Made by a program: the position numbers and the translations under genes
Shown here: piece after piece, positions 2,468 to 11,643 of the stretch
Layout: every line of letters starts with the position of its first letter
Numbering within the stretch: position 1 is the first letter of the stretch
Notes under the pieces: model-generated
Seen by the model: only the letters and a program-made list of their open reading frames with translations
Told to the model about the DNA's origin: nothing
Databases searched by the model: none
Sequence record: SRR20825006_2856
Reading direction: 5' to 3' (one strand)
DNA: 32,205 nt

Positions 2468-5400
2468 TTGCGTTTGAAATCTAAAATAGAAATTTTAGAA
2501 CAGGATTTTCAGCAACTTAGAAATGAAAATTCAGAGGTATTTGATTGGATAATCGAAAAGCCTATTTCAGGCTTGCTTTATGTCAATTCAGATCAAGGCG
2601 CTTCAGCCTTTTATATCTCATCATCCCTTTGGAACATATTAGGATTTGAATCATCAACGCTAGATGATCAGTCAAAGCTTTGGTCAAAAGTCTTGACTGA
2701 CTCAGGTAAAACGCTCATCGAAAAAGCTTTTAATGATTCTACCGAAGCATTCTATAAAACCATTCAACATTTTACGCTTAACGATGCTTCTGACGCAGGC
2801 CTCGACTTTACTGTAGAAGCCTGGGAACATACAGAACAGTCGGGTAAAAAGCATTTCGTTTTAAAATTTCTTGATCGGCAAATTTCCTTTTCGCAAGAAA
2901 ATATTGATTACTTACAGAAATACAACGAGATCTACGAAGAGACTAATGAGTTGGCTCTGGTAGGCGGTTGGGAGGTAGACCTAACAAATCAGAAAGTTTT
3001 TTGGTCTAGCGTGACCAAAAAAATTCACGAGGTTCCTATGGACTATGAGCCCGATATGGATACGGGAATTAATTTTTATAAAGAGGGCTGGAGCAGAGAG
3101 AAAATTTATAAAGCGTTTTACGATTGTGTAGATAATGGAGGCTCCTTTGATGCTGAATTTATTATGGTCACCACAACCGGAAAAGAAAAATGGGTGCGTA
3201 GTCTGGGAAGAGCCGTTATGCAAAACGGAAAGTGTGTGCGTGTTTATGGAGCTTTTCAAGATATTACTGCTCAGAAACTTCAAGAGGAATCACTACGCAA
3301 GACGGAATTACGATTTACTCAAATTTTTGAAAATTCAGCCATCGGAATCATTTTGGTTAATACCAAAAATGAACTACAGTTGGTAAATACGGTGGCTAAA
3401 AAGATCTTTGGCTTTGAAGATCGTCCTGATACCGAAATACTAAAATACACCTTTAAAGATGTTTTGTTGCCGGAATATCTAAACACGGCTATTGAAAAAC
3501 GAAATCAATTACTGCGTGGCGAAATCGAGCACTATAGTTTTGAGGCAGCCTGTTATAACAGATCTGGGAAAGTAATATGGTGTAATCTTAATTGCTCTTT
3601 GGTCAACGACGGAAGCGTAGATGATGACTTGATCATAACGCAGGTTGAAGATATTACACAACGTAAAAAATTACAAAAGAACGCCCTGCAGAATGCTTCT
3701 AGGTTTAAAAGAGTTTTTGAGAATGCTCCACACGGAATGGTTCTTTTGGATCTCAAGGGTAACCTTAGAAACGTCAACAAAAGTCTTTGTGATATTTTAG
3801 GGTATTCAAAAGAAGAACTATTAGAAAAATCTATTGAAGATTTTACCTATGCAGAAGATCGCGATGAAGTGTTCACGTATTTTTCAAAAATCGTGGCTAA
3901 AGAAATTCCTTCATTTCAGTTAAGTAAACGCTATCTGCATAAGGATGGAGAAGTGAGAGAATGTAATTTAACGATATCAGGCTTGCTGGATGAAAACAGA
4001 GATGTTCGCTCATTCATAGCACATGTGGTAGATGTTACTGAGGAGCAAAAAGCACAACAAGCTTTAGAAGAAAGTTTGCTGGATCATAAGGCTTTACTCA
4101 ATGCAACCAGCCGTGTGATTATTGTGGAAACCGATTTAGATCACAGAATTAAGAGATTTAATAAAGGAGCTGAAAATCTTTTAGGATACACTGAAGATGA
4201 AGTAATTGGTAAGTTATATCCTGAGGTTTTTTATGTGAAGGAAGAAGTGGAAGCCTATGCTAATCAACTGGAAAAAGAGTACGGGGAAAAGGTAGCTATA
4301 GAAGATGTGTTCACATTTAAATTAGGTAAAGGTAAAATCGAATCTAACGAGTGGAACTACATCAAAAAGAATGGCGACAAACTTCCGGTACAACTTATTG
4401 TTACGCCTATAAAAAATGATAAAGGAGAATCTAAAGGTTATCTGAAGATCTCTACAGATATTTCGGCTTTAAAAGCAATGGAAACCTCCTTGCTGCAAGC
4501 TAAAGAGCGCGCAGAGCAGGCTAATCAATTTAAGTCAGAATTTTTAGCAAATATGAGTCACGAAATCCGTACTCCTTTAAATGGAGTTATAGGGTTTACT
4601 GATATTTTAATGCAGTCCAAGCTTGATCAAAATCAGACCAAATATGTAGAGACCATATATTCTTCTGCCGTTTCGCTGCTTGATTTACTTAATGATATTC
4701 TCGATTTTTCAAAGATAGAATCCGGTAAACTTAACTTGAGTGAAGAGCGCGTAAACATTGCAGACCTCTGTGCTCGTTCTGTGGAAATGATCAGGCACCA
4801 GGCGCATCAGAAAAACCTTGAAGTGCTGCTCAATATTTCAACTAAAATTGAAGAATATATCCTTGCCGATGGGTTGCGGTTACGTCAGATACTCATCAAC
4901 TTGTTGAGCAATGCAGTGAAGTTTACGCACAAAGGTGAAATAGAATTAAAAGTTCAAGCGCAGGATATCCCTGATGATCCAAATACTAAACGTTTTACTT
5001 TTTCTTTGCGCGACACCGGTATTGGTATTGCGCCTCAGAACGTAAAAGAGATTTTTGATGCCTTTAATCAAGGGGATGCTTCTACAACCCGCAAGTACGG
5101 GGGAACAGGATTAGGACTGACCATCAGTAATAGACTGCTTGAGTTGATGCACAGTAAGCTTGAAGTTTCTAGTGAATTGGGAAGTGGCACCACATTCTCC
5201 TTTAGTGTTGATTTTGCCATTGAGGCTAAAACAGAACGCGCTGCTTCATATTCTCAAGAGTTGAAGAGAGTTTTGGTGGTAGATGATAATCAAAACAATC
5301 GAGTGATCATCGCCGAATTACTCGCCAGCCGAAAGATAAAAACCATTCAGGCGGCAAACGGAATTGATGCATTAGAAATTTTGCAAAAGGACACTGATTT

Positions 5401-6082
5401 CGACTTGGCGCTCATTGATTACGCTATGCCGTACCTAAATGGTCTTGATTTAATTGAGCATATAAGAACAGATCTAAAGGTAACGCAGGAGCAATTGCCT
5501 ATCGTGTTGCTGCACAGCTCAGAAGAGGATCAAACTATAAATGATCGCTGTAAAAAACTTGGTGTTCATAATAAATTAGTGAAGCCTGTTTTGCGCAAAG
5601 TTCTTTTTGAAACTATGGATAGCCTAGGTTTTAGTAACGATCAGTTTGCTCAAAAAGTCGACTTTGACGCTATTGAAGATTTACAAGACAAGCTTACAAT
5701 AATGGTAGCCGAAGATAATCCTGTAAATAAGTTCTTGACTCGTACGATCTTAAATAAAATAGCTGGGCAAGCAAAATTAATCGAAGTAGAAAATGGCGAG
5801 CAGGCTGTAGCAGCATTTAAAAAGAATCACATTGATATCATCTTGATGGATATTCAAATGCCGATATTAAGTGGTTATGAAGCTACGCAACAAATCAGAG
5901 CGTTGGAGCCTAAAGAAGAGCGCGTACCTATTATAGCGTTAACCGCTCGTGCTTTAAAAGGGGAGCGGGAGCGTTGCTTGTCGTATGGTATGGACGATTA
6001 TATTTCAAAACCATTAATTCTGGAAGATATTAAAGCTGTGATCAATGCGTTTTTAGAACGAAAAAAGATAACTTTAAAATAA
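2468..6082 (+). CDS. Cytoplasmic hybrid sensor histidine kinase: multiple PAS/PAC, HisKA, HATPase, two receiver domains (TTG start)
   Basis: PAS/PAC ends FQDIT, VEDIT, VVDVT, STDIS. H-box FLANMSHEIRTPLNG, N-box NLLSNAVKFT, DTGIG, GGTGLGL. REC1 VVDDN...IDYAMP and REC2 AEDN...MDIQMP...SKP. No obvious TM helix. Confidence 0.93.
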   Translation: MRLKSKIEILEQDFQQLRNENSEVFDWIIEKPISGLLYVNSDQGASAFYISSSLWNILGFESSTLDDQSKLWSKVLTDSGKTLIEKAFNDSTEAFYKTIQHFTLNDASDAGLDFTVEAWEHTEQSGKKHFVLKFLDRQISFSQENIDYLQKYNEIYEETNELALVGGWEVDLTNQKVFWSSVTKKIHEVPMDYEPDMDTGINFYKEGWSREKIYKAFYDCVDNGGSFDAEFIMVTTTGKEKWVRSLGRAVMQNGKCVRVYGAFQDITAQKLQEESLRKTELRFTQIFENSAIGIILVNTKNELQLVNTVAKKIFGFEDRPDTEILKYTFKDVLLPEYLNTAIEKRNQLLRGEIEHYSFEAACYNRSGKVIWCNLNCSLVNDGSVDDDLIITQVEDITQRKKLQKNALQNASRFKRVFENAPHGMVLLDLKGNLRNVNKSLCDILGYSKEELLEKSIEDFTYAEDRDEVFTYFSKIVAKEIPSFQLSKRYLHKDGEVRECNLTISGLLDENRDVRSFIAHVVDVTEEQKAQQALEESLLDHKALLNATSRVIIVETDLDHRIKRFNKGAENLLGYTEDEVIGKLYPEVFYVKEEVEAYANQLEKEYGEKVAIEDVFTFKLGKGKIESNEWNYIKKNGDKLPVQLIVTPIKNDKGESKGYLKISTDISALKAMETSLLQAKERAEQANQFKSEFLANMSHEIRTPLNGVIGFTDILMQSKLDQNQTKYVETIYSSAVSLLDLLNDILDFSKIESGKLNLSEERVNIADLCARSVEMIRHQAHQKNLEVLLNISTKIEEYILADGLRLRQILINLLSNAVKFTHKGEIELKVQAQDIPDDPNTKRFTFSLRDTGIGIAPQNVKEIFDAFNQGDASTTRKYGGTGLGLTISNRLLELMHSKLEVSSELGSGTTFSFSVDFAIEAKTERAASYSQELKRVLVVDDNQNNRVIIAELLASRKIKTIQAANGIDALEILQKDTDFDLALIDYAMPYLNGLDLIEHIRTDLKVTQEQLPIVLLHSSEEDQTINDRCKKLGVHNKLVKPVLRKVLFETMDSLGFSNDQFAQKVDFDAIEDLQDKLTIMVAEDNPVNKFLTRTILNKIAGQAKLIEVENGEQAVAAFKKNHIDIILMDIQMPILSGYEATQQIRALEPKEERVPIIALTARALKGERERCLSYGMDDYISKPLILEDIKAVINAFLERKKITLK

Positions 6083-6104
6083 TGCTTGCAATACCGTTTT
6101 TAAA

Positions 6105-6821
6105 TTGACTGCTGCTCATAAACATATAATTCTTGTTGATGCTGATCTGGAAGCTCAGGTACGATTTAAATCTAATTTTTCTAGTAAAGAAGTAGAGATC
6201 ATTGCCTTTACTTCAGGAATGGGAGCCATTCAATACATCAAGCAAACCGGTGCGCCAGATCTTTTGGTGCTTGAAGAAGCAGCTAAGCCTTTAGGAGCCG
6301 TACAAACATTAAATTATCTCAAGGATCAAATAGCGTTTACAGCTCCGGTGGTGGTTATTGCAGAAAACTTAGAGGAAGATACAATAGCGATTCAAGCACA
6401 AAAAGTGATTACAAAACCATATAAATGTGAAGATATCGCTTTCATCAAAGAGCTTTTAATGCTTAAAGAGTTGGCAGGCGCCGAAGAAGAAAAATACTAT
6501 AAACTCGATTATCTTAAGGAGCTCGCGGAAGGTGATACCGATTTTATTAAAGAAAGTCTCAAGATTTTTATACAAACCGTTCAGCCACAAATTGAAGAAC
6601 TGACGCAAAATCATGCATCAGAAAATTTTAAACAAGTTGGCCAACTGGCGCACGCTGTTAAGCCTTCTTTTGAAATGCTTCAGAATTATAAAGCCGCAAA
6701 AATTTGTGATGATCTCGCACATCACGCCCAGCCGGACGAAATGGAACATCTTGTTCATCAACTTCTGCAAGAACATCAACATATTATAACGAGTCTAAAA
6801 GCAGATTTTTCTGATTTATAG
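6105..6821 (+). CDS. Receiver-like (pseudo-REC) plus Hpt phosphotransfer domain protein (TTG start)
   Basis: N-terminal REC fold pattern (IILVDAD...DLLVLEE...ITKPY). C-terminal LDYLKELAEGD...LAHAVKPSF Hpt-type His motif. Confidence 0.8.
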   Translation: MTAAHKHIILVDADLEAQVRFKSNFSSKEVEIIAFTSGMGAIQYIKQTGAPDLLVLEEAAKPLGAVQTLNYLKDQIAFTAPVVVIAENLEEDTIAIQAQKVITKPYKCEDIAFIKELLMLKELAGAEEEKYYKLDYLKELAEGDTDFIKESLKIFIQTVQPQIEELTQNHASENFKQVGQLAHAVKPSFEMLQNYKAAKICDDLAHHAQPDEMEHLVHQLLQEHQHIITSLKADFSDL

Positions 6822-6853
6822 GAATGCTTCTAAAGCCTTAACAATAAACTCCA

Positions 6854-7222
6854 ATGAAAAAAAATATCCTAGTAGTTGAAGATAATAAGCAGGTTGCTGA
6901 AGCCATTGTACATAGTTTGGAAAAAGCAGGCTACACCGCGAGAGTATGTTCTGATGGAACCGCAGCCATCGAAAATTTAAAGAGCAGCATCTTCCACTTA
7001 GTGATTATCGACCTATTATTACCCTTCACTTCAGGTATGAACGTCATTAAATGGTCAAAAACCGAATTTCCAACCTTACCCATTATCGTATTGTCTTCAA
7101 TTTTAGATGAAAATATAGTAACCCGAACGTATTTAATGGGCGCTTATGATTATATCACCAAGCCATACCACCCTTCACGACTATTACAAAGTGTCGAAAA
7201 AGGGCTAAAGCAAGCAGAATAA
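6854..7222 (+). CDS. Single-domain response regulator (CheY-like)
   Basis: ILVVEDN, IIDLLLP (phospho-Asp), VLSS, GAYDYITKP; 122 aa with no output domain. Confidence 0.92.
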   Translation: MKKNILVVEDNKQVAEAIVHSLEKAGYTARVCSDGTAAIENLKSSIFHLVIIDLLLPFTSGMNVIKWSKTEFPTLPIIVLSSILDENIVTRTYLMGAYDYITKPYHPSRLLQSVEKGLKQAE

Positions 7223-7251
7223 GATTTCTACTTCTATAAGCGTTTATTTTA

Positions 7252-7259
7252 TACCTTTG
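7252..7259 (+). promoter_or_regulatory. Bacteroidota sigma-70 -7 element (TACCTTTG) for the metal-efflux cluster
   Basis: Exact match to TAnnTTTG, 9 nt before ATG 7269. No clean -33 TTTG seen. Confidence 0.65.
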
Positions 7260-7268
7260 CAAATCAAG

Positions 7269-7694
7269 ATGAAGCAGGTAGCAAAACAAATAATGGCAAT
7301 AGTTCTGGCATTCGTGGTCGTTTGTACCACAATGTCGTTTTCTATAAATATGCATTATTGTGGCGAAACTTTAGTTGATTACACGGTGATCAACAAAGCC
7401 AGTTCTTGCGGAATGGATCAGATGGCTAGTTCGCTGAGTAACATTGACTGTGAACAACAAGTCACTCAAAAGTCGTGCTGTCAAGACAAAACTTTTTCTG
7501 CTGCCGGCCAGAACGAATTGAAGCCTAGTTTTAGTTCGTTTTCTTTAGAGCAACAGCTTTTTGTAACCACCTTCTGCTATGCTTATGCGGCGCTCTTGGC
7601 CCCACAAACCACTGCTTCAACAGACTTCTTTGCGTATACCCCTCCTCAGCTCGTCAGGGACATTCAGACCTTAGACGAGGTTTACTTGATTTGA
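7269..7694 (+). CDS. HYC_CC_PP-type small exported/membrane protein; candidate metal-responsive leader ORF
   Basis: Hydrophobic N-terminus, H29-Y30-C31, SCGM, C70-C71, P125-P126 near the C-terminus. ATG 7269 preferred because the TTG at 7257 lies inside the -7 box. Confidence 0.8.
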   Translation: MKQVAKQIMAIVLAFVVVCTTMSFSINMHYCGETLVDYTVINKASSCGMDQMASSLSNIDCEQQVTQKSCCQDKTFSAAGQNELKPSFSSFSLEQQLFVTTFCYAYAALLAPQTTASTDFFAYTPPQLVRDIQTLDEVYLI

Positions 7695-7695
7695 T

Positions 7696-7898
7696 AGGTA
7701 TTGTTTAGACATTCTTCGTCTAAATTTTAAGGTTTTCGCATTCGCGAAAAAACTGCTGTACTTCAGTTTTTAACAAATACATTTTATGGCGTGACCTTAA
7801 AAAGCTATGTATTTAAGGCTATACCGGTAATTTAAAATGTATTTGTTGCGAGTGCCTCACAGGTTTGCCCGGGAATCATTTACGTTCACACAATACCT
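7696..7898 (+). promoter_or_regulatory. Structured intergenic RNA leader of cusA (multi-hairpin, long-range closing helix)
   Basis: Inverted repeats: 7704-7710/7718-7724, 7733-7739/7744-7750, 7748-7755/7764-7771, perfect 15-bp 7772-7786/7833-7847 with inner 7795-7801/7812-7818, and 7696-7704/7890-7898. Confidence 0.6.
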
Positions 7899-7905
7899 CA
7901 TTTTT

Positions 7906-10900
7906 ATGCTCAACAAAAGCATTAAGTTTTTTATCGAAAATAAGCTAGTCGCTTTTTTACTCTTAGCCCTCTTTTTGGGTTGGGGGATCGCCACGGCACC
8001 CTTCAATTGGGATGGTATTTCTGAAATTGCCGGGATTCCGAGAGCTCCGGTTGCGGTGGATGCAATTCCCGATCTTGGTGAAAATCAGCAAATTGTTTTT
8101 ACGAAATGGCAAGGGCGGTCGCCACAGGATATTGAAGATCAAATCACATATCCGTTAACTTCTGCGCTTTTAGGAATTCCCGGAGTAAAAACCATCCGAA
8201 GCTCTTCCATGTTTGGTTTTTCAAGCATCTATCTCATTTTTGAAGAAGACGTTGAATTTTACTGGAGCCGAAGCCGCATTCTTGAAAAGCTCAATTCACT
8301 TCCTGCAAATCTTCTGCCGGAAGGGGTTAATCCGTCTTTGGGGCCTGATGCTACCGGTTTAGGACAAATCTTTTGGTACACTCTTGAAGGGCGCGATGCA
8401 GACGGAAACGTCACTGGCGGCTGGGATTTGCAAGAACTGCGTAGCATTCAGGATTATTATGTGAAATACAGTCTGGCTTCGGCTGGTGGTGTTGCTGAGG
8501 TGGCATCAATAGGAGGATATGTACAGGAATATCAGATTGATGTAAACCCAGAACTGCTAAAACAATACAATATAAGTCTTGATGCACTGGTCAAGGCGGT
8601 CAAGTCAAGTAATGAAGAAATTGGTGCCCAGACCCTAGAGATCAATAAGGCTGAGTATCTGGTGCGGGGTTTGGGTTATATTAAATCTCTTGAAGATATC
8701 GAGAATGCCGTAGTGACCTCAGAAGCTTATACGTCGATCCGTGTAAAAGATGTGGCTCGCGTTCATATGGGGCCGGCACCACGCCGCGGAATTTTAGATA
8801 AAGAAGGTGCTGAGGTGGTAGGCGGAGTAGTAGTAGCGCGCTACGGTGCTAATCCTATGGAGGTCATCACCAATGTAAAGGCACAGATCAAGGAACTTAG
8901 CGCGGGCTTACCCTCAAAAACTTTAGCTGATGGCAGAACCTCTCAGCTTACAATTGTACCGTTTTACGATCGTACCCAGTTAATAGAAGAGACTTTGGGC
9001 ACACTTGATGAAGCCCTCACCATGGAAATCCTGATTACCATTCTTGTGATCGTCGTTATGCTTTTTAACTTAAGGGCTTCCCTATTAATTTCCGGATTAC
9101 TCCCCGTGGCTGTCTTTATGGTCTTTATCGCTATGAAGCTTTTTGAGGTTGATGCAAATATTGTTGCGCTCTCCGGGATCGCTATCGCAATCGGGACGAT
9201 GGTAGATGTAGGCGTAATTCTTACCGAAAATATGATTCGGCACCTTGAAGAGGCTGATAAAAATGACTCAAAACTGTCATACAACACCCTGATCTATAAT
9301 GCCACGGCAGAAGTTTCGGGCGCTATTGTTACCGCTGTGCTCACTACCATTATAAGTTTTATTCCGGTGTTTACATTGATGGGTGCAGAGGGTAAATTGT
9401 TCCGCCCCTTGGCGTTTACTAAAACCGCAGCATTAACCGCGTCACTCATCATCGCACTTTTCTTGATTCCGCCTTTTGCGGCTATAATTTTTAGGAAACG
9501 AAGATTTAAATCAACGACACAAAACATAGTTTGTGCACTTCTAATTCTAATAGGAAGCATCGCAGTGTTTTTCGGTGTTTGGCTGGGGCTTGTATTGATC
9601 GCTTTTGGAATGCTGTACTTTTTACGCAAAACGAAAAAACTTCCGTTTCAAAACCTTAAACATGCTGAGATCATAATCACTGTTTTAGCGATCGTTTTTT
9701 TGTTGGCAACCTATTGGAGGCCTTTAGGCTTCAACCGAAGCATTTTTATAAACCTCGTGTTTGTAACCCTGATTTGCACGTTGTTTTTTGGCCTGTTCTG
9801 GGTTTTACGACGGTTTTATGACCGTATTTTAAGATGGGCATTAGCAAACCGACTCTTGTTTCTTGCCCTACCGGCGACCCTGCTGATCAGTGGCGCGTGG
9901 ATCTATTCAAAAATGGGTAAGGAGTTTATGCCGGCACTCAACGAAGGAACTTTCTTGCTGATGCCTACTTCGCTTCCTCACGCAGGCGTGGAAGAAAATA
10001 AACGCGTGTTGCAACAACTCGATATGGCTGTGGCGAGTATTCCCGAAATAGAAACGGTCGTCGGCAAAGCAGGAAGAGCTGAGTCTGCACTTGACCCCGC
10101 GCCTTTGTCAATGTATGAGAATATTATTCAGTACAAACCAGAATATATGTTGAACGCAGCCGGAAGAAAGCAGCGGTACAAGGTGGATGAGCAAGGTTAT
10201 TTTCTGCTACAAGATGGTAGCAAAGCGTATAATCCCAATATGCAGACCGAAGCGGTTGCACCTGAAATGAGTATGAAATTTCCGGTGACTGCTGAAGATT
10301 TAATAGAAGATGAAGAGGGTGCGTACTATCGCAACTGGCGTCCAGAGATTCAATCTCCTGACGCAATCTGGAAGGAGATTGCGCGCTTAACGCAACTTCC
10401 CGGAGTGACTTCGGCACCAAAACTTCAACCTATAGAAACCCGGTTAGTAATGCTGCAAACAGGGATGCGTGCACCTATGGGAATTAAGATCAAAGGGCAG
10501 AATTTACAGCAGATTGAAGCGTTTGGCTTTCAGCTTGAAAAACATTTAAAACAAGTTGAAGGCGTAAAAGCCGAAGCGGTTTTTGCCGATCGAATCGTAG
10601 GAAAACCCTATTTGCTTATAGATATTAAACGAGACCGGCTTGCGCGTTATGCTATTGCGATTGCAGATGTGCAGCAAGTGCTTGAAGTTGCCGTGGGCGG
10701 AATGCCCATCACTCAAACTGTAGAAGGTCGCGAGCGGTATTCGGTGCGGGTGCGTTATCCTAGAGCGCTTCGGGAACATCCTGAGGATCTTAAAAATACT
10801 TATGTTCCGGTGGCGATGGGAAATCCGGTACCACTCAGTGAATTGGTGGAAATACGCTACGAGCAGGGACCGCAAGTAATTAAAAGTGAAGACACCTTTT

Positions 10901-11643
10901 TAGTGGGGTATGTTTTATTTGATAAGCTAGATGCTTATGCTGAGGTTGATGTGGTAGAACAGGCACAAGCAGTGCTTCAGTCTAAGATAGACTCCGGAGA
11001 GTTGGTGGTTCCGCAGGGCATCAACTATCAATTTACAGGAACGTATGAGAATCAGTTGCGTGCAGAGAAGACCTTGACCATTGTGGTGCCCATGGCATTG
11101 CTCATCATTTTCTTAATTCTTTACTTTCAGTTTAAATCGGTGAGCACTTCATTTATGGTCTTTACCGGGATCGCGGTGGCATTTGCCGGAGGCTTTATAA
11201 TGCTTTGGCTGTATGGTCAAGCGTGGTTTTTGAATTTTGAAATTTTTGGAGCGAATCTAAGAGATTTGTTCCATATGAAAACTATAAACCTGAGCGTTGC
11301 GGTTTGGGTAGGTTTTATTGCGCTCTTTGGGATCGCAACCGATGATGGCGTCGTGATGGCCACCTACTTAACGCAGACTTTTAGTAAAACGAATCCTTCT
11401 GATCGGGAGGGAATTCGGCAAGCTACGCTACGTGCAGCAAACAAGCGCATCAGACCGTGTTTGATGACCACGGTGACCACAATTTTAGCGTTGTTGCCGG
11501 TACTCACGTCAACCGGAAGAGGTAGTGACATTATGATCCCAATGGCGATCCCCATATTTGGCGGGATGATCATTGATGTCACCTCGTACTTTATCGTGCC
11601 GGTGTTGTATAGTTGGAAAAAAGAAATAGCCTTGAACTCATGA
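7906..11643 (+). CDS. cusA: CusA/SilA-family heavy-metal efflux RND permease (Cu(I)/Ag(I) type)
   Basis: VDAIPDLGENQQIV, LGPDATGLG, IAIGTMVD, RIRPCLMT. Mets matching the CusA Cu site in LLMP, PLSMYE and LVMLQTG. ATG 7906 (MLNKSIKF) preferred over 7837, which lies inside a hairpin arm. Confidence 0.92.
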   Translation: MLNKSIKFFIENKLVAFLLLALFLGWGIATAPFNWDGISEIAGIPRAPVAVDAIPDLGENQQIVFTKWQGRSPQDIEDQITYPLTSALLGIPGVKTIRSSSMFGFSSIYLIFEEDVEFYWSRSRILEKLNSLPANLLPEGVNPSLGPDATGLGQIFWYTLEGRDADGNVTGGWDLQELRSIQDYYVKYSLASAGGVAEVASIGGYVQEYQIDVNPELLKQYNISLDALVKAVKSSNEEIGAQTLEINKAEYLVRGLGYIKSLEDIENAVVTSEAYTSIRVKDVARVHMGPAPRRGILDKEGAEVVGGVVVARYGANPMEVITNVKAQIKELSAGLPSKTLADGRTSQLTIVPFYDRTQLIEETLGTLDEALTMEILITILVIVVMLFNLRASLLISGLLPVAVFMVFIAMKLFEVDANIVALSGIAIAIGTMVDVGVILTENMIRHLEEADKNDSKLSYNTLIYNATAEVSGAIVTAVLTTIISFIPVFTLMGAEGKLFRPLAFTKTAALTASLIIALFLIPPFAAIIFRKRRFKSTTQNIVCALLILIGSIAVFFGVWLGLVLIAFGMLYFLRKTKKLPFQNLKHAEIIITVLAIVFLLATYWRPLGFNRSIFINLVFVTLICTLFFGLFWVLRRFYDRILRWALANRLLFLALPATLLISGAWIYSKMGKEFMPALNEGTFLLMPTSLPHAGVEENKRVLQQLDMAVASIPEIETVVGKAGRAESALDPAPLSMYENIIQYKPEYMLNAAGRKQRYKVDEQGYFLLQDGSKAYNPNMQTEAVAPEMSMKFPVTAEDLIEDEEGAYYRNWRPEIQSPDAIWKEIARLTQLPGVTSAPKLQPIETRLVMLQTGMRAPMGIKIKGQNLQQIEAFGFQLEKHLKQVEGVKAEAVFADRIVGKPYLLIDIKRDRLARYAIAIADVQQVLEVAVGGMPITQTVEGRERYSVRVRYPRALREHPEDLKNTYVPVAMGNPVPLSELVEIRYEQGPQVIKSEDTFLVGYVLFDKLDAYAEVDVVEQAQAVLQSKIDSGELVVPQGINYQFTGTYENQLRAEKTLTIVVPMALLIIFLILYFQFKSVSTSFMVFTGIAVAFAGGFIMLWLYGQAWFLNFEIFGANLRDLFHMKTINLSVAVWVGFIALFGIATDDGVVMATYLTQTFSKTNPSDREGIRQATLRAANKRIRPCLMTTVTTILALLPVLTSTGRGSDIMIPMAIPIFGGMIIDVTSYFIVPVLYSWKKEIALNS

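Follow-up and report, generated by a model that had tools for sequence, protein, structure and literature searches.

A conserved predicted RNA structure between the stop codon of an HYC_CC_PP family gene and the start codon of cusA in Flavobacteriaceae, a candidate element of translational coupling

The 32,205-nt stretch of sequence record SRR20825006_2856 analysed here (the window) carries the heavy-metal efflux gene cusA, which is separated from the gene preceding it by a spacer of 211 nt, the sole long gap of the gene cluster. One nucleotide past the stop codon of the upstream open reading frame (TGA 7692-7694), the sequence AGGTATTGT (7696-7704) is the exact reverse complement of ACAATACCT (7890-7898), which occupies positions -16 to -8 relative to the cusA ATG at 7906; 185 nt lie in between. 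The locus raises the question of whether these two arms close an RNA structure through which translation of the upstream gene controls that of cusA, as an initial annotation had proposed, or whether the repeat is a product of chance, an RNA element of another kind or a signal at the DNA level. The 9-nt exact inverted repeat on which that proposal was built was confirmed from the sequence.

The window was assigned to Leeuwenhoekiella; the best public match of the upstream protein was from L. palythoae DSM 19859 (96%), and the nearest genome (G001) contains the same locus with 95% DNA identity. The upstream reading frame had been labelled a leader, which was wrong: it is a full gene whose 141-aa product belongs to the HYC_CC_PP family (NF047658, E-value 1.6e-27, 96.5 bits against a cut-off of 28). 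The product is a small membrane protein; no Pfam family was matched by it, and no literature naming HYC_CC_PP was found. The C-termini of the HYC homologues uniformly read L/I-I before the stop codon, and an AlphaFold2 model computed with 16 sequences was poor (pLDDT 57.8, pTM 0.22). Among 301 genomes sampled from the phylum, 59 contained the family. CusA is a member of the CusA/CzcA RND family (TIGR00914, 798.5 bits against a cut-off of 701.45), and its gene is followed by those for an outer-membrane efflux protein, a DUF3347 protein, an ArsP permease, an HMA/MauE protein and a CusB-type adaptor; these genes follow one another at distances of at most 41 nt.

The minimum free energy fold of 7690-7920 was closed by the repeat (helix P1) and contained hairpins between the arms, as the initial annotation had described (-55.9 kcal/mol, z = -3.26; one of 200 shuffles folded equally well). 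The seven central pairs of P1 had probabilities of 0.96-0.98 when the window spacer was folded with 30-nt flanks; with longer context the P1 probability dropped to 0.62 (7600-8000), 0.055 (7500-8100) and 0.39 (7269-8300), and forcing P1 in the 7500-8100 fold carried a penalty of 4.0 kcal/mol. Rival partners for both arms lie in coding sequence (7636-7640 and 8014-8019), and such pairings are assumed to be cleared by translating ribosomes. With 100-nt flanks, 1.4 bridge pairs are expected to be retained in the window, compared with six or more in 85 of 88 loci. The window P1 comprises only 9 bp and leaves the stop codon outside the helix in the best fold; according to the folding models it ranks among the weakest helices of the set and depends on the amount of flank that is folded. 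The positions of all features are given in Table 1. The inner hairpin shared within the Leeuwenhoekiella group, helix 3 of alignment A2, had 95.2% of its cells paired, and all five pairs of the start-codon hairpin were possible in 74 of the 88 loci.

Table 1. Features of the HYC-cusA region, in window coordinates
Feature	Position	Strand	Evidence or remark
Bacteroidota -7 promoter box TACCTTTG	7252..7259	+	17 nt before HYC ATG
HYC_CC_PP family gene, 141 aa	7269..7694	+	NF047658 match; stop TGA 7692-7694
P1 5' arm AGGUAUUGU	7696..7704	+	exact inverted repeat and fold
Inner hairpin, 7704-7710 with 7718-7724	7704..7724	+	inverted repeat and fold
Inner hairpin UUUUCGC/GCGAAAA	7733..7750	+	kept in the Leeuwenhoekiella group, with U-G to C-G changes
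Junction motif, window version CUGCUGUACUUC (canonical AAUUUGCUGUAUUC)	7753..7764	+	in and next to the loop of hairpin 7748-7771
15-bp perfect hairpin, 7772-7786 with 7833-7847	7772..7847	+	core of lineage-specific extra stretch
P1 3' arm ACAAUACCU	7890..7898	+	cusA -16 to -8
Unpaired 7-nt linker, P1 to AUG	7899..7905	+	gap 5-7 nt in 65/88 spacers, 6 nt in 48
Small start-codon hairpin, AUGCU 7906-7910 with AGCAU 7918-7922	7906..7922	+	pair probabilities 0.73-0.94
cusA/czcA heavy-metal RND pump gene	7906..11643	+	TIGR00914 match; start by homologues

Taken alone, the window repeat is not far above what chance would give. For comparison, 30 loci (L002, L009-L038) were collected from the nearest genome and from relatives of the same genus and family, and 80 named contigs were taken from a scan with at least 586 relatives; cusA lay directly downstream in 78 of these contigs, and the remaining two stop at the contig edge before cusA. 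The resulting set comprised 108 spacers (88 distinct), all from Flavobacteriaceae. Spacer length was 92-147 nt as a rule and 209-211 nt in the window and L. palythoae. These two share an extra stretch of ~95-115 nt (about 7774-7888 in the window), which by alignment had no counterpart in four other Leeuwenhoekiella spacers; no second copy of it was found in the three genomes searched (G001, G020 and G002), so it is not a repeat there, and the window spacer as a whole had no second copy in G001. The L. palythoae lineage is therefore atypical for this element, and the distance of about 200 nt over which coupling had been postulated applies to the window, but not to the family at large.

In the predicted folds, a closing helix of 9-24 pairs joined the stop region to the bases before the AUG in all 88 distinct spacers. 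Among dinucleotide shuffles of the homologous spacers, which are A/U-rich, 514 of 1760 (29%) reached closure of this kind (nine or more pairs end to end); within 400 kb of G001, where ORFs were called crudely, it was seen in 15 of the 56 ordinary spacers that lie between same-strand genes and measure 80-220 nt (27%). The window observation rises above chance because closure is conserved in each of the 88 distinct homologous spacers. The mean z-score of the folds was -5.4, with 86 of 88 spacers below -2; the spacers come from related genomes and are non-independent samples, so significance is overstated. As to its placement, the helix started at the U of the stop codon in 71 spacers and not more than 7 nt from the stop in all 88, the stop-codon bases were paired in 76, and the HYC stop codon was TGA in 105 of the 108 loci. 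The distance from the helix foot to the AUG was 6 nt in 48 spacers and 5-7 nt in 65.

The arms themselves differ between lineages. The 12 nt following the stop codon fell into 10 sequence clusters of 5' arms, and examples of arm pairs include AGGUAUUGU/ACAAUACCU, AAUGUAUGGU/ACCAUACAUU, UUAAACAGU/ACUGUUUAA, UUAGAUAGU/ACUAUCUAA and UUAAGUAAUUA/UAAUUACUUAA. When each 5' arm was paired with foreign 3' arms (from loci with at least 10 differences over 25 positions of the 5' arm), the energy was -7.81 kcal/mol compared with -12.97 kcal/mol for its own 3' arm, which was the better partner in 88 of 88 cases. Within an alignment of 26 canonical spacers (A5), for which a 35-pair structure was assessed, 90.6% of the cells were paired compared with 34.5-41.9% when the partners were slid; fourteen pairs showed changes on both sides, and the five measures computed were reached by none of 500 shuffles. 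These double changes were mostly located in two inner hairpins. P1 is largely constant in the canonical group, with two-sided change in one of 12 outer-helix pairs and one of five inner-helix pairs, and part of this conservation may serve something besides pairing; in the sequences compared, P1 covariation appears between groups and not inside one. On plain MAFFT alignments of the Leeuwenhoekiella group and of a mixed second group, RNAalifold recovered one helix each, and hand-set structures on these two alignments had moderate support (71.6% and 81.9% of cells paired). The end-to-end pairing and the covariation in homologous linkers that the initial annotation had named as checks were thus both found, and the window repeat can be regarded, on comparative grounds, as one diverged copy of a conserved RNA structure.

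A further 28 loci were examined, drawn partly from outside the family, other classes included, and partly from Flavobacteriaceae with divergent HYC homologs. In 11 of them cusA began 58-106 nt downstream, and 10 of these 11 short spacers were closed by 11-16 pairs of unrelated sequence; 31% of the shuffles of these spacers reached 6 pairs. The helix extended into the start codon in five of the ten closed spacers. At the other 17 loci cusA was 296-1227 nt away or absent from the fetched piece. One to three or more inner hairpins were present, their sequence differing between groups, and the closing helix was the only part shared across families, with no core common to all.

Inverted repeats flanking a segment directly upstream of a gene occur in invertons, and the arms here enclose about 100 bp in such a position; terminator-like hairpins were moreover seen in 16 of 88 spacers. 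An element acting on DNA or on transcription (an invertible promoter, a small mobile repeat, an operator, or a terminator with an internal promoter) was considered on these grounds and can scarcely be credited. The spacers contain no -7 promoter box (0/88), 72 of the 88 are without a terminator-like site, and in the window spacer no intrinsic terminator (G+C-rich hairpin with U tract) was found. A recombinase or repressor site common to all lineages would not be expected to vary as the arms do. The junction motif was found in the sense orientation only in 42 spacers, in antisense only in one and in both in four, and no inversion was seen among the assemblies by the orientation of this motif; an inverton was rejected on the absence of the box and on this 42 to 1 ratio.

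Several strand asymmetries likewise favour an RNA made from the sense strand over an element acting as DNA. The + strand folded better than the - strand in 25 of 28 spacers (-34.0 vs -28.8 kcal/mol), and single A-C mismatches were far rarer than G-U pairs, both in P1 (3 vs 23) and in the inner helices (8 vs 230). The strand evidence stems mostly from the inner helices, because G-U pairs are scarce in P1 (23 of 1292). A covariance model built from A5 (R1) scored 71-128 bits on the sense strand and at most 31 bits on the antisense strand, all strong matches being sense. R1 yielded 43 matches in 42 of 151 Flavobacteriaceae genera (one genome each), and 12 of 12 fetched R1 loci lay exactly between the HYC gene and cusA; a MITE- or REP-like repeat was rejected on these counts. 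The element is single-copy, tied to the HYC-cusA context and not a mobile repeat. R1 did not pick up the window or the Leeuwenhoekiella group at E-values up to 1, and these are joined to the family via gene context and a shared junction and hairpin, not via R1.

The same junction motif is one argument for a sensor RNA, riboswitch-like or protein-binding, in which a junction would bind a metal, a metabolite or a protein and thereby set the stability of P1. A three-way junction with a conserved single-stranded stretch occurs in many spacers (AAUUUGCUGUAUUC in the 26 canonical spacers, a looser form in 46 of 88, all Flavobacteriaceae), and the operon concerns metal efflux. A sensor is nevertheless quite improbable: the inner hairpins vary and only the closing helix is common across families, where a riboswitch would have a conserved core; the sense-strand junction motif was not found in 42 of 88 spacers; a ligand stabilising P1 would turn the efflux pump off; and the link to the stop codon would be left unexplained. 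As to whether the motif had already been described, no Rfam 15 family was matched by the window or by fifteen homologous loci. The scan of window positions 7000-8300 gave two matches with E-values of 2 and 6.4, far below gathering, and that of the fifteen loci one match with an E-value of 0.58, located outside the spacer. The literature searched on flavobacterial RNA motifs and metal efflux and on translational coupling of czcA in Bacteroidetes held nothing on this element. The conserved RNA structure was not found described in Rfam or in the literature searched.

With regard to the mRNA on which such a structure would act, the -7 box TAnnTTTG, absent from the spacers, was seen ahead of the HYC gene in 75 of 88 loci when stretches as long as the spacers were scanned, its distance to the HYC ATG being 13-17 nt in most cases and at most 118 nt; judged by this box, no internal promoter is indicated in the linker. 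In the window, TACCTTTG at 7252-7259 is the only + strand TANNTTTG until 17718 and is likely the only promoter of the operon. For F. johnsoniae, a distance of 4-5 nt from the -7 box to the transcription start and leaders of more than 10 nt for 87% of messages are given in PMC6847099; for F. psychrophilum, 5.5% of messages are leaderless according to PMC9723704. From the box positions and the spacing of 4-5 nt, the leader of the HYC message would therefore be 0-5 nt long (~4-5 nt in the window). The cusA start at 7906 also held: the tblastn match of cusA starts with residue 1, and on an ATG, at each of the 30 loci and of the 78 further ones, an in-frame stop lies upstream of the ATG inside the spacer in 88 of 88 cases, and the alternative in-frame ATG at 7837 sits in the lineage-specific insertion; by these alignments, ATG 7906 is the conserved cusA start. 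None of the three findings that the initial annotation had named as refuting its proposal was thus encountered. One 677-nt RNA-library contig with L. palythoae-type variants spans 7281-7959, a weak hint at co-transcription, as contigs cannot prove a single transcript; in three other RNA libraries (X15, X16 and X17), likewise examined as contigs, no contig crossed the spacer. We infer that both genes are co-transcribed.

An mRNA processing or stability element, that is, an RNase site splitting the HYC and cusA messages or a protective fold, would suit the strongly structured region (z -5.4) and its A/U-rich single-stranded junctions. Contigs of X16 end near 7655-7679, though contig ends are no evidence of transcript ends. 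RNase III needs about 20 bp, and a P1 of 9-24 pairs is mostly short for it; nor does processing account for arms placed exactly at the stop codon and just before the start codon. This explanation is considered highly improbable.

Structure-mediated translational coupling of cusA to the HYC gene, the mechanism proposed in the initial annotation, appears from the sequence comparisons to be the best supported reading, and it is regarded as probable, with moderate confidence. The HYC-cusA spacer would be a conserved cis-acting mRNA structure on a message that a single promoter directly upstream of HYC provides for both genes. P1 would pair the HYC stop-codon region with about -22 to -7 of cusA, with one to three hairpins inside P1 and the AUG in a separate small hairpin, so that the cusA landing site would be masked to free ribosomes. 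A ribosome reaching the HYC stop codon would melt the 5' arm and free the 3' arm; the start codon would then lie a few nucleotides from the helix foot, spatially near the terminating ribosome, and cusA would be initiated either by that ribosome or by a fresh 30S subunit. CusA would accordingly be made only on messages on which HYC had just been made, with coupling across 92-211 nt.

Models of the fold are consistent with this scheme. The mean unpaired probability of -22 to -7 over the 88 spacers was 0.23 in the free state and rose to 0.65 when a terminating ribosome was modelled by forcing the stop codon, the next 10 nt and 30 nt of upstream coding sequence to be unpaired. In the predicted structures the cusA initiation region is paired with upstream sequence, and its partner is placed such that ribosomes translating or terminating there have to unwind it, both of which are expected of coupling. 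Opening by a ribosome at the stop codon would follow from this geometry, the stop codon being part of the predicted helix in 76 of 88 spacers, and masking would probably operate in vivo as well. The modelled unmasking was only partial in the window (0.37 to 0.50); the closed multibranch RNA over the cusA landing site is supported by comparison. In flavobacteria, mRNA structure between -20 and +20 tunes initiation, for which their ribosomes do not rely on Shine-Dalgarno pairing (PMC6847099).

The masked free state would also fit a constitutive damper or insulator that lowers cusA translation or halts ribosomes past termination and in this way keeps the ratio of CusA to HYC low independently of HYC translation, in a role like that proposed for the ribosome termination structure (RTS; PMC7518266), with which it shares a stable structure starting at the stop codon. 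A local hairpin after the stop would suffice for an insulator, whereas here the stop region pairs with the cusA initiation region in every case, and matching changes maintain the pairing; a damper is therefore judged distinctly unlikely.

Closest to coupling by unmasking is a shunt-like hand-over, in which the helix would mainly serve to set the stop codon beside the AUG and the terminating ribosome, which may be a 70S ribosome since the upstream message appears nearly leaderless, would be passed across the folded spacer. Such a hand-over would agree with the stop codon lying in the helix in most spacers, with the fixed gap between helix foot and AUG, and with the position of the -7 box 13-17 nt before the HYC ATG and the leader of 0-5 nt that follows from it. 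A bridge would be needed, as re-initiation normally fails beyond about 20 nt; for E. coli and Haloferax, this limit of termination-reinitiation is given in PMC10666635, and a bridge of the present kind would be an exception to it. On the other side, no bacterial precedent was found in the literature consulted; by the time a ribosome occupies the stop codon, the helix supposed to set the geometry is already melted; and the start codon itself is covered by the helix in other families, which fits masking better. A hand-over is unlikely, and so, to the same degree, is a Bacteroidota "stop-start bridge" in which the terminating ribosome would be handed over a ~100-nt folded spacer to a cusA AUG ~6 nt past the helix foot. 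The damper, the sensor, the processing site and the DNA-level elements all leave the constant pairing of the stop region with the cusA initiation region unexplained.

Translational coupling through this structure, if true, would bear directly on the view, expressed in PMC10666635, that coupling needs gaps of less than about 20 nt, and would provide a natural, testable case over 100-200 nt where initiation is Shine-Dalgarno-independent and structure-dependent. The element would then be an undescribed cis-regulatory mRNA motif controlling a heavy-metal efflux pump, present in a large share of Flavobacteriaceae (R1 alone in 42 of 151 genera) and recurring in other families of Bacteroidota, and the uncharacterised HYC_CC_PP protein would be marked as a probable fixed-ratio partner of CusA. 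Should the hand-over be true instead, it would constitute a bacterial counterpart of ribosome shunting and a general, Shine-Dalgarno-free way of coupling distant cistrons.

Structure-mediated coupling is known from the coat-replicase ("Min Jou") interaction of MS2 and Qbeta and from atpHA and rpmI-rplT of E. coli, in all of which, as proposed here, pairing with a stretch further upstream masks the initiation region of the second cistron until translating ribosomes open it, which makes this cistron dependent on translation of the first. The present element would differ from these systems in that its upstream arm consists of the stop codon and the first untranslated bases and not of internal coding sequence, in that its arms close a dedicated folded spacer of 92-211 nt, and in that the host ribosomes ignore the Shine-Dalgarno sequence and the upstream message appears nearly leaderless. 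The metal riboswitches czcD/NiCo likewise have a P1-closed multi-helix junction beside a metal-efflux gene, whereas here no core is conserved across lineages and P1 is anchored on the stop codon of the upstream gene. In the ribosome shunt of cauliflower mosaic virus 35S RNA, a large closed structure likewise has the end of an open reading frame at its foot, and ribosomes take up translation again just past the other side of that foot; that system is eukaryotic and depends on scanning 40S subunits, whereas persistence of the fold during transfer is only hypothetical here. The RTS, a local structure proposed by Chemla et al. 2020 (PMC7518266) to insulate or control re-initiation, is similar in that stable mRNA folding sets in right behind the stop codon, where the terminating ribosome has its edge, as in the folds predicted here; unlike in the local RTS described there, the stop region pairs with the initiation region of the next gene ~100 nt away, from which coupling would be predicted. 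Termination-reinitiation pairs (Huber et al. 2019; PMC10666635) resemble the HYC-cusA pair in being adjacent same-strand genes, possibly for subunits in a fixed ratio; these pairs overlap or are separated by less than about 20 nt, whereas HYC and cusA are 92-211 nt apart along the message and only ~6 nt apart across the foot of the predicted helix.

At the foot of P1, the predicted closing helix between the stop-codon region of the HYC_CC_PP gene (HYC) and the bases just before the cusA AUG, TGA is the HYC stop in 105 of 108 Flavobacteriaceae spacers, usually in the context UGAU, which is paired with AUCA. TAA and TAG are also used outside Flavobacteriaceae, and with these stops the helix begins a few bases downstream or the pairing differs. 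For each of the two P1 arms, the coding sequence next to the spacer offers a rival partner (see table), and these rivals prevail over P1 in long-context folds; they could represent chance matches or an alternative state of the untranslated mRNA. The nearest genome (G001) carries a second HYC-cusA pair with arms AUUAAACAG/CUGUUUAAU, which are unlike those of the window-type locus, so that two bridge types coexist in one genome.

Between two inner hairpins, the single-stranded junction motif AAUUUGCUGUAUUC is kept in many Flavobacteriaceae spacers, and it was not seen in the loci fetched from other families. The extra stretch was present only in the window and in the L. palythoae ortholog, with no second copy found elsewhere in three Leeuwenhoekiella genomes. 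All five pairs of the hairpin around the cusA start codon are possible in 74 of the 88 distinct Flavobacteriaceae loci. The codon for serine 5 of cusA is AGC almost without exception in the homologous loci; selection to keep the hairpin paired may account for this, or simply conservation of the protein and its codons.

Coordinates of features in and around the HYC-cusA spacer
Feature	Position	Strand	Remarks
Hybrid histidine kinase with PAS domains, 1204 aa	within 2468-7222	same strand	directly upstream, together with the next two
238-aa protein	within 2468-7222	same strand	weak phosphotransfer and receiver-domain protein matches
Stand-alone receiver, 122 aa	within 2468-7222	same strand	
-7 promoter box (TAnnTTTG) to HYC ATG	7252-7269	+	box also in 75/88 homologous loci
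P1-arm rival AUACC	7636-7640		inside HYC
Junction motif CUGCUGUACUUC	7753-7764	+	single-stranded; window version
Canonical junction motif AAUUUGCUGUAUUC	columns 63-77 of A5 (alignment of 26 spacers)		canonical spacers
15-bp perfect hairpin of extra stretch	7772-7786 with 7833-7847		window
Extra stretch, roughly 95-115 nt	about 7774-7888		window
5-bp start-codon hairpin, AUGCU with AGCAU	7906-7922	+	around cusA start codon
P1-arm rival GGUAUU	8014-8019		inside cusA
Second HYC-cusA pair of G001	L002, contig C12, 360-2601		spacer canonical, 142 nt

In several other Bacteroidota families and some divergent Flavobacteriaceae homologs (loci L149-L157, L161, L162 and L139-L142) the HYC homologue does not adjoin cusA; as cusA lies 499-1227 nt off or did not turn up in a stretch of about 1.9 kb, the gene pair and its bridge are not universal. 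The model of the HYC protein (window 7269-7694; pLDDT 57.8) has helices at residues 2-22 and 93-109 and, between them, a Cys/His-rich stretch of low confidence, an arrangement suggestive of a small membrane protein whose loop binds metal. No Pfam family was found for the protein, nor any paper under the name 'HYC_CC_PP'.

In most of the 75 loci with a -7 box, 13-17 nt separate the first base of the box from the ATG of HYC; as F. johnsoniae is reported to have 4-5 nt from box to transcription start (PMC6847099), this implies a predicted HYC leader of 0-5 nt. Leaders of at most 10 nt are reported for 13% or less of F. johnsoniae messages (PMC6847099), and 5.5% of F. psychrophilum messages are reported as leaderless (PMC9723704); such short-leader messages are a rare class in Flavobacterium.
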